From Eledone cirrhosa (Eukaryota), in the NCBI GenBank assembly GCA_964016885.1, contig OZ024744.1, forward strand, positions 30,132,001 to 30,196,000: a stretch of DNA of 64,000 nt, in the 5' to 3' direction. Below, piece by piece: positions 59,156 through 59,856 of the stretch. The notes below the pieces were generated by a model. The model made no database searches. It had not been told where the DNA came from and saw only the letters and a program-made list of their open reading frames with translations. The translations under genes and the position numbers were made by a program. Within the stretch, counting starts at the first letter, position 1. Every line of letters begins with the position of its first letter.

Positions 59156-59849
59156 AATAGCGCCAGCTCGTAATTTGAACTAGGGAATTTTATATTCTCC
59201 GAGTGAAAAGATCCTTCTGACGAGAGTATATCTTTGCAATGGAAGGCCGCAAGGACTGTCCATTTATTTTTGAGACTCGAAACCGATTCGGTAAAGGTAA
59301 CCATAGTGAGTACAGTTAATTTTTTAAAATTTATTTTGAAATTTTTTCTTATTTGCTAAACCTTGATTATATATGTTCTGGCTCGTTAATTTCTTAACCT
59401 GCCATTGAACTACATTGGCATATGGTTGGACAATACATGTGTCCCTAGACACTTTTTGCGTGTTGGGATATATACTTTATTATTATACTCCTCTTGTTCG
59501 AGAAAAAAATTTGGTCGTTCTGACTGCTGCTATTTATAGTGGTAGTAGACTGACCTCCCTGCCTTTGCTTCTATCTTTACACACGACACGGAACGGAATT
59601 GCTTCCATATCATTCATTCTCATCTCGGGAACAATTTTGAATAGCGCCAATTCGTAATTTGAACTCGGGAATTTTATATTCTCCGAGTGAAAAGATCCTT
59701 CTGACGAGAGTTTATCTTTGCAATGGAAGGCCGCAAGGACTGTCCATTTATTTTTGAGACTCGAAACCAATTCGGTAGAGGTAACCATAGTGAGAACAGT
59801 TAATATTTTAAAATTTATTTTGAAACCTTTTCTTATTTGCTAAACCTTG

Positions 59850-59856
<7 letters not shown>
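59156..59856 (+). mobile_element. Retrozyme-like family C: 484-nt monomer, 1.45-mer with two HHRs
   Basis: 59156-59373 repeated at 59640-59856; flanked by (TA)n. Confidence 0.85.
59213..59297 (+). ncRNA. Type I hammerhead, family C (second copy 59697-59781)
   Basis: cctt-CTGACGA-gagt...actc-GAAAC-CGATTCG-GTA-aagg; stem II capped by cc-GCAA-gg. Confidence 0.88.

Follow-up and report, generated by a model that had tools for sequence, protein, structure and literature searches.

A non-coding 484-nt hammerhead repeat of Eledone cirrhosa as a likely new non-LTR retrozyme family, probably mobilized by PLE machinery

Within a 64,000-nt stretch of the Eledone cirrhosa genome (here called the window), a sequence with two predicted hammerhead ribozymes interrupts a (TA)n microsatellite, which raises the question of what kind of element it represents and how it came to be placed there. 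The initial annotation described a direct repeat of period 484 with two CTGACGA hammerheads whose predicted cuts lie 484 nt apart, without an ORF and inserted in (TA)n, and closer analysis bore these observations out. The direct repeat consists of 219-nt copies at positions 59156-59374 and 59640-59858 (spacing, 484) that are 95% identical, with 10 differences. A topology scan of both strands placed type I hammerheads at 59203-59304 and 59687-59788 on the plus strand, with GTA triplets ending at 59293 and 59777, after which the cuts are predicted. The (TA)n target is present on both flanks (58795-59155 to the left and 59859-59882 to the right). No stop-free frame of at least 100 aa was found on the ribozyme strand of the unit; its minus strand holds a 101-aa frame with no Pfam match. 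An open frame for RT plus GIY-YIG, the criterion for an autonomous Penelope-like element (PLE), is absent.

The view of a unit bounded by two hammerheads did not hold. At the DNA level, the copy is a single-armed insertion (59156-59858, plus strand) of 703 nt, or 1.45 units, whose 3' end is fixed and whose 5' side is truncated at random. Judged by its sequence, it is a decaying genomic copy of a non-coding 484-nt repeat with a predicted type I hammerhead, a repeat referred to below as family C. The stretch between both cut sites (59294-59777, plus strand) corresponds to a predicted 484-nt RNA monomer (GC content of the unit, 0.36), and its computed fold is better than that of 99 of 100 shuffled sequences (z = -3.35).

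The first hammerhead comprises, on the plus strand, a 4-bp stem I (59213-59216 with 59294-59297), the CTGACGA core (59217-59223), an extended stem II region of 55 nt between the core and GAAA (59224-59278), the GAAA itself (59279-59282), and a palindromic 4-bp stem III (59282-59292); the core of the second lies at 59701. Stem II had been described as about 55 nt long and ending in cc-GCAA-gg. The length and the tip (59247-59254) were confirmed, but the region is no single helix, being predicted to form two 6-bp stems that are separated by an 8x8 internal loop and closed by a small tip, and the GCAA loop is replaced by GTAA, GTAT, or GCAT in other subfamilies. Both window hammerheads carry private changes, which disrupt one stem II pair in the first and the last stem III pair in the second. 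In each of three units folded, the predicted minimum is lower than the hammerhead fold, by 2.0 to 7.1 kcal/mol. Rfam gave no hammerhead at the locus among 150 of 279 matches listed, probably because stem II is long.

Covariation across genomic copies suggests that this fold has been maintained between subfamilies, whose changes leave 96.9% of cells paired. Among 60 of the 237 hammerhead units, picked to cover haplotypes, 6 of 25 pairs were changed on both sides (a value reached in 1 of 500 shuffles), as were 28 cells (none of 500 shuffles; 1 to 6 in slid controls), counts that reflect few independent events among related sequences and a structure itself derived from sequence. The double-sided changes are located in stem I, in the proximal part of stem II, and in its distal extension, where U-A is replaced by C-G in 17 sequences. 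Core and stems are kept in 156 of 247 whole-hammerhead units and in 78 of 144 from loci chosen without the core pattern; 15 arms, including the window copy, carry at least two intact hammerhead motifs. Copies differ by strand-symmetric substitutions, and mismatches in single copies are hardly rarer in the core (2.3%) than elsewhere (3.0%), from which most family C copies appear to be decaying. No scars of A-to-I editing were seen, with A>G changes at 6.9 per 1,000 and T>C changes at 7.3 per 1,000.

Family C is dispersed through the 3.0-Gb genome. Its end 20-mer has 1,588 exact matches and none in controls, which rules out a one-off local duplication; the core-to-core hammerhead pattern has 733 exact matches and none in reversed controls. 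As the first 100 of the 1,588 matches fall in about 76 places, over a thousand insertions are expected. An element search returned 2510 candidates, with near-full-length matches 90 to 95% identical among the 40 scored. An older subfamily (L259:2118-3278) is 77 to 83% identical and has more changes in stem II, apparently compensatory. In two sequencing runs of unknown kind from one sample, family C occurred as many short contigs covering part of the unit only.

The end anatomy of these copies speaks to how they were inserted. After removal of 28 duplicates from 208 loci, which came from search queries and form a non-random sample, 263 arms from 180 distinct insertions were mapped onto the unit. 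Their 3' ends fall at unit positions 212 to 222 in 167 arms (site A, about position 219) and at 319 to 334 in 72 arms (site B, about position 332), with 24 elsewhere; 239 of 263 arms thus end at two sites 113 nt apart. The 5' ends scatter across the whole unit, and an apparent fixed 5' end in the first element search was due to query bias. Because arms end at two fixed 3' sites while their 5' ends scatter, the 219-nt repeat is not an LTR. The window copy holds, all on the plus strand, an internal site A (59368-59374), the 113-nt "tail" from site A to site B (59375-59487), and a second site A (59852-59858) serving as the actual 3' end of the insertion, followed by (TA)n. Both sites are TA-rich, and 192 of the 239 canonical ends lead into TA. 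Sixty-four head-to-head junctions were found, 55 of them with two canonical ends; site A was joined with site B in all 55, and A-A or B-B pairings did not occur. Site A is a putative start of reverse transcription.

Fixed paired ends combined with variable 5' ends indicate, at the level of sequence, the "tail" footprint of PLEs. According to Craig et al. 2021 (PMC8557442), PLEs are recognized by partial tandems, by a 5'-truncated copy in inverted orientation, and by a tail on one side, and all three were found in family C. Frangieh et al. 2024 (PMC11167929) reported that AT-rich DNA is cut and extended on both strands by a purified PLE protein, which initiates at two sites within the RNA, and that these sites set the limits of the tail. 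Family C resembles EN+ PLEs further in its AT-rich or (TA)n target and in having a hammerhead in the repeated end, and differs from them in lacking an RT or endonuclease frame. Its tail is 113 nt, against the usual 30 to 40 of PLEs. Its two putative start sites are divided strictly between the two DNA ends and are TA-rich, whereas in the in vitro study (PMC11167929) the strands did not differ and the PAc sites are not homologous to the target.

Metazoan retrozymes of the non-LTR kind consist of tandem repeats that code for no protein and carry type I hammerheads; according to Cervera and de la Pena 2020 (PMC7229834), coral, mussel, and axolotl express them as circles. The same authors proposed that PLEs mobilize retrozymes from circles, and Li, Clavereau and Pollet 2026 (10.64898/2026.07.22.740005) tied retrozymes, with units of 51 to 972 bp, to PLE ends. 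Family C shows every sequence-level feature by which this group is recognized: one type I hammerhead per unit, a tandem arrangement, a low GC content (36%), no protein-coding capacity, no LTR, and dispersal; it also coexists with PLEs. Its 484-nt unit exceeds those of expressed retrozymes (170 to 400 nt) and lies within the range of Li et al. Unlike these retrozymes, it has a 55-nt stem II region with an internal loop, and it forms short arms and no long arrays. Fixed paired ends are seen in family C, while none are described for retrozymes in the parts of PMC7229834 and 10.64898/2026.07.22.740005 considered here. Plant LTR retrozymes likewise place two hammerheads in direct repeats around a non-coding middle (10.64898/2026.07.22.740005); they differ in having type III hammerheads, true LTRs whose ends are fixed, a PBS, a PPT, and 4-bp target duplications, where family C has type I hammerheads and ragged 5' ends that vary over the unit. 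Cleavage and circular RNA have been demonstrated for other retrozymes; for family C they are predicted. Overall, family C is likely a new non-LTR retrozyme family, and its end anatomy suggests that it is likely mobilized by PLEs.

With regard to the template, haplotypes were compared at 48 subfamily sites, with L130, L233, and L049 excluded from the opposite-arm counts. Discordance amounted to 3.8% (67/1781) between units within an arm and 4.5% (35/775) between opposite arms, values that represent the background rate, compared with 36% between insertions. Since all units and both arms share a haplotype, one RNA variant appears to have been the template for each insertion, although only a single near-private variant is common to opposite arms. 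Simple twin priming on one linear RNA, which calls for abutting arms, was rejected: abutment was seen in only 3 of the 55 A arms and in 1 of the 55 B arms, and in 16 of 55 junctions the arms overlap whatever linear register is chosen. Of 59 arms in the least biased set, 16 exceed one unit; the longest arm seen reaches 1529 nt, or 3.2 units. About 101 of 115 passes run across the predicted cut site, which fits both a circle and an uncut multimer. Reads over the 484-nt junction cannot show a circle, because that junction is already present in the tandem genomic copy.

An analysis of 205 of 239 arms (204 in the version allowing for microhomology), from which length-selected or query-forced arms had been removed, revealed a modest clustering of 5' ends near the cut. 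Fourteen ends lie at unit positions 133 to 144, one of them an alignment break, where about 4.8 were expected, an enrichment of about threefold (p = 0.0005); with microhomology allowed for, seven lie at 138 to 140 against about two expected (p = 0.005; rank 4 of 457 windows). A further excess at positions 1 to 11 was taken as an artefact of the chosen monomer boundary. Three of the clustered ends sit 2 to 4 nt past the cut, and in two insertions one arm halts at the cut site while the other crosses it twice, so the cluster may reflect pausing at a structure. The latter two insertions could not arise from a single cut linear RNA. In L232, both arms (77 and 199 nt) end at the cut site, as a cut linear RNA would give.

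These ends bear on the strongest alternative, which accepts the same element and PLE machinery and has as template a linear, mostly uncut multimer from tandem arrays, with the hammerhead trimming some 5' ends only. The stop excess, as in L232, is compatible with cDNAs that run off a 5' end left by cutting. In vitro, the PLE worked chiefly on uncut RNA, and its hammerhead was dispensable (PMC11167929), which makes the alternative more serious. A palindromic stem III, as in family C, suggests slow, dimer-dependent cutting (PMC6765202), and only 1 of 9 Xenopus retrozyme dimers was cleaved in vitro (10.64898/2026.07.22.740005). Linear copying, however, shortens the daughters in every round, so each subfamily would need a long uniform array of its own; the longest arm observed has 3.2 units. 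Variants found in at most two insertions are common to successive units (near-private variants were shared in 36 of 381 comparisons, against 0.24% expected). Terminal and upstream units show no consistent difference outside hard-to-align runs, and L118 and L206 are not derivable from one 5'-cut linear RNA. A linear template is a serious contender that we nonetheless regard as rather unlikely, whereas these patterns give some preference to a template that was mostly circular, with pausing or some linear molecules.

It was also considered whether the copies could be truncated ends (pseudo-LTRs) of a coding PLE instead of a self-standing non-autonomous element. PLE ends bear type I hammerheads, most PLE copies are 5' truncated (PMC8557442, PMC6765202), and an origin of retrozymes from pLTRs has been proposed (10.64898/2026.07.22.740005). 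Against this, family C units follow one another head to tail and no coding frame separates them, they have no similarity to the coding families examined, and abutting upstream sequence is common to only two pairs among 100 single-arm insertions. As single arms have no common upstream body, family C copies do not appear to be truncated coding PLEs, and this very improbable reading is largely refuted by the sequences compared. A satellite or other DNA-level repeat (local duplication, unequal exchange, or Helitron-like rolling circle) whose hammerhead is incidental or dead would suit the neutral decay of single copies and at least one local duplication (L149), but is hardly credible, as dispersal, two fixed 3' ends with random 5' ends, strict A-B inverted pairing, and compensatory stem changes between subfamilies would be unexpected.

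With a mostly circular template, the following course of events could be proposed. Tandem copies would be transcribed, cut by the hammerhead into 484-nt monomers, and ligated to circles, as for the retrozymes of coral, mussel, and axolotl. The enzyme of a PLE, probably acting as a dimer, would bind near the tail and break both (TA)n strands, and cDNA would be primed at two positions within the RNA that lie 113 nt apart, one per DNA end; both steps are read from the observed ends. In keeping with the pattern of arms, each cDNA would halt near-randomly about 300 nt back, often past the cut and sometimes past a full unit. Two extended ends would yield head-to-head arms, and one would yield a single arm like the window copy, with one RNA variant templating both arms and every unit, as the haplotypes suggest. 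The evidence leans toward family C having entered TA microsatellites with the help of a reverse transcriptase and endonuclease borrowed from a PLE, for which a circular monomer was the likely template. A more specific model, which we offer tentatively and would not yet back, is that a PLE dimer holds a single RNA circle, made by the ribozyme, at two sites that are 113 nt apart, copies round it from both break ends, and sometimes halts at the ligation scar, while the long covarying stem II with its 8x8 internal loop would be a module timing the ribozyme cut.

The genome also contains abundant coding PLE-type families, with open frames of more than 1000 aa, whose ends lie in (TA)n. When six 3' sequences from five coding families were compared with non-coding elements in a search for the partner PLE, none of the 24 comparisons gave an alignment below p = 0.03. 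The candidates P0002 (an abundant neighboring PLE), the P0001 family, and 30 GIY-YIG loci gave no significant match; in the GIY-YIG survey, 150 of 10,596 candidates were scored and 30 were fetched. A GAAAC-GGTAAAGG look-alike in one coding family (L278, L282, L285) was dismissed for want of a CUGANGA core (p = 0.17 to 0.38). The 3' regions of this GIY-YIG family keep the GAAAC-stem III-GTA half of a hammerhead, with no CUGANGA core nearby.

The window holds several further elements. A 5'-truncated copy of a coding PLE at 61430-63980 belongs to a family with 47,460 candidates (96 to 98% protein identity among those scored), open frames of up to 1238 aa, a CTGAAGA hammerhead of its own, and a pair of ends separated by about 59 nt. 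As Pfam returned no family for the full 1238-aa frame, its PLE label rests on a weak RVT_1 match and on motifs that we take to be characteristic; Neptune and Hydra are names of PLE clades. A fragment of a second coding PLE family with a GIY-YIG domain (62,062 candidates) lies at 44530-45600. A near-perfect palindrome at 59968-60353, with 193-nt arms, no spacer, and a CTGATGA...GAAA motif in each arm, is probably the two-armed end of another PLE-type element. LINE-type elements with an AP endonuclease and RT occupy 53677-57258 and 40189-42457 (both minus strand), and an LTR-type RT plus RNase H fragment occupies 10079-11895 (minus strand).

Two further non-coding families bear on whether family C is, as first annotated, a second, independent retrozyme family. 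Family A (50705-52256) has a 466-nt unit, is two-armed in (TA)n with arm ends 74 nt apart, and carries a type I hammerhead whose stem II is short (Rfam HH9, 36.5 bits, below the gathering score). The claimed lack of similarity to family A was upheld, as blastn found none and shuffled local alignments gave p = 0.10 to 0.73; an end signature common to both by eye (p = 0.10) is not claimed. Family D is a non-coding tandem repeat with a unit of about 543 nt (window positions about 52422-52740, minus strand; L241:180-596; L244-L263), 3158 candidates, and a non-canonical hammerhead-like core, CTGATGA, then GTAAC in place of the usual GAAAC. It alone, of the families compared, shares the insertion-end region of family C (z = 11.8), where a hairpin is predicted directly before site A (59294-59364, plus strand). 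This hairpin may be a candidate recognition signal, as its fold and the homology to the end of family D suggest. Family C is thus separate, multi-copy, and unalignable to family A, but not fully independent, given an end region homologous to that of family D.

As retrozymes and their proposed dependence on PLEs are already known, the class itself is not new. No paper on family C or on paired ends in retrozymes was found in the literature searched, which covered articles outside their supplements, and long-stem-II PLE hammerheads may be in print. Family C adds sequence evidence on the least understood step of the retrozyme cycle. Its strict site pairing and single haplotype per insertion would tie the in vitro PLE "tail" result to the spread of retrozymes, and its long stem II represents a ribozyme variant open to testing. 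Family C may thereby provide a small, defined substrate for asking whether a PLE enzyme copies a circle.
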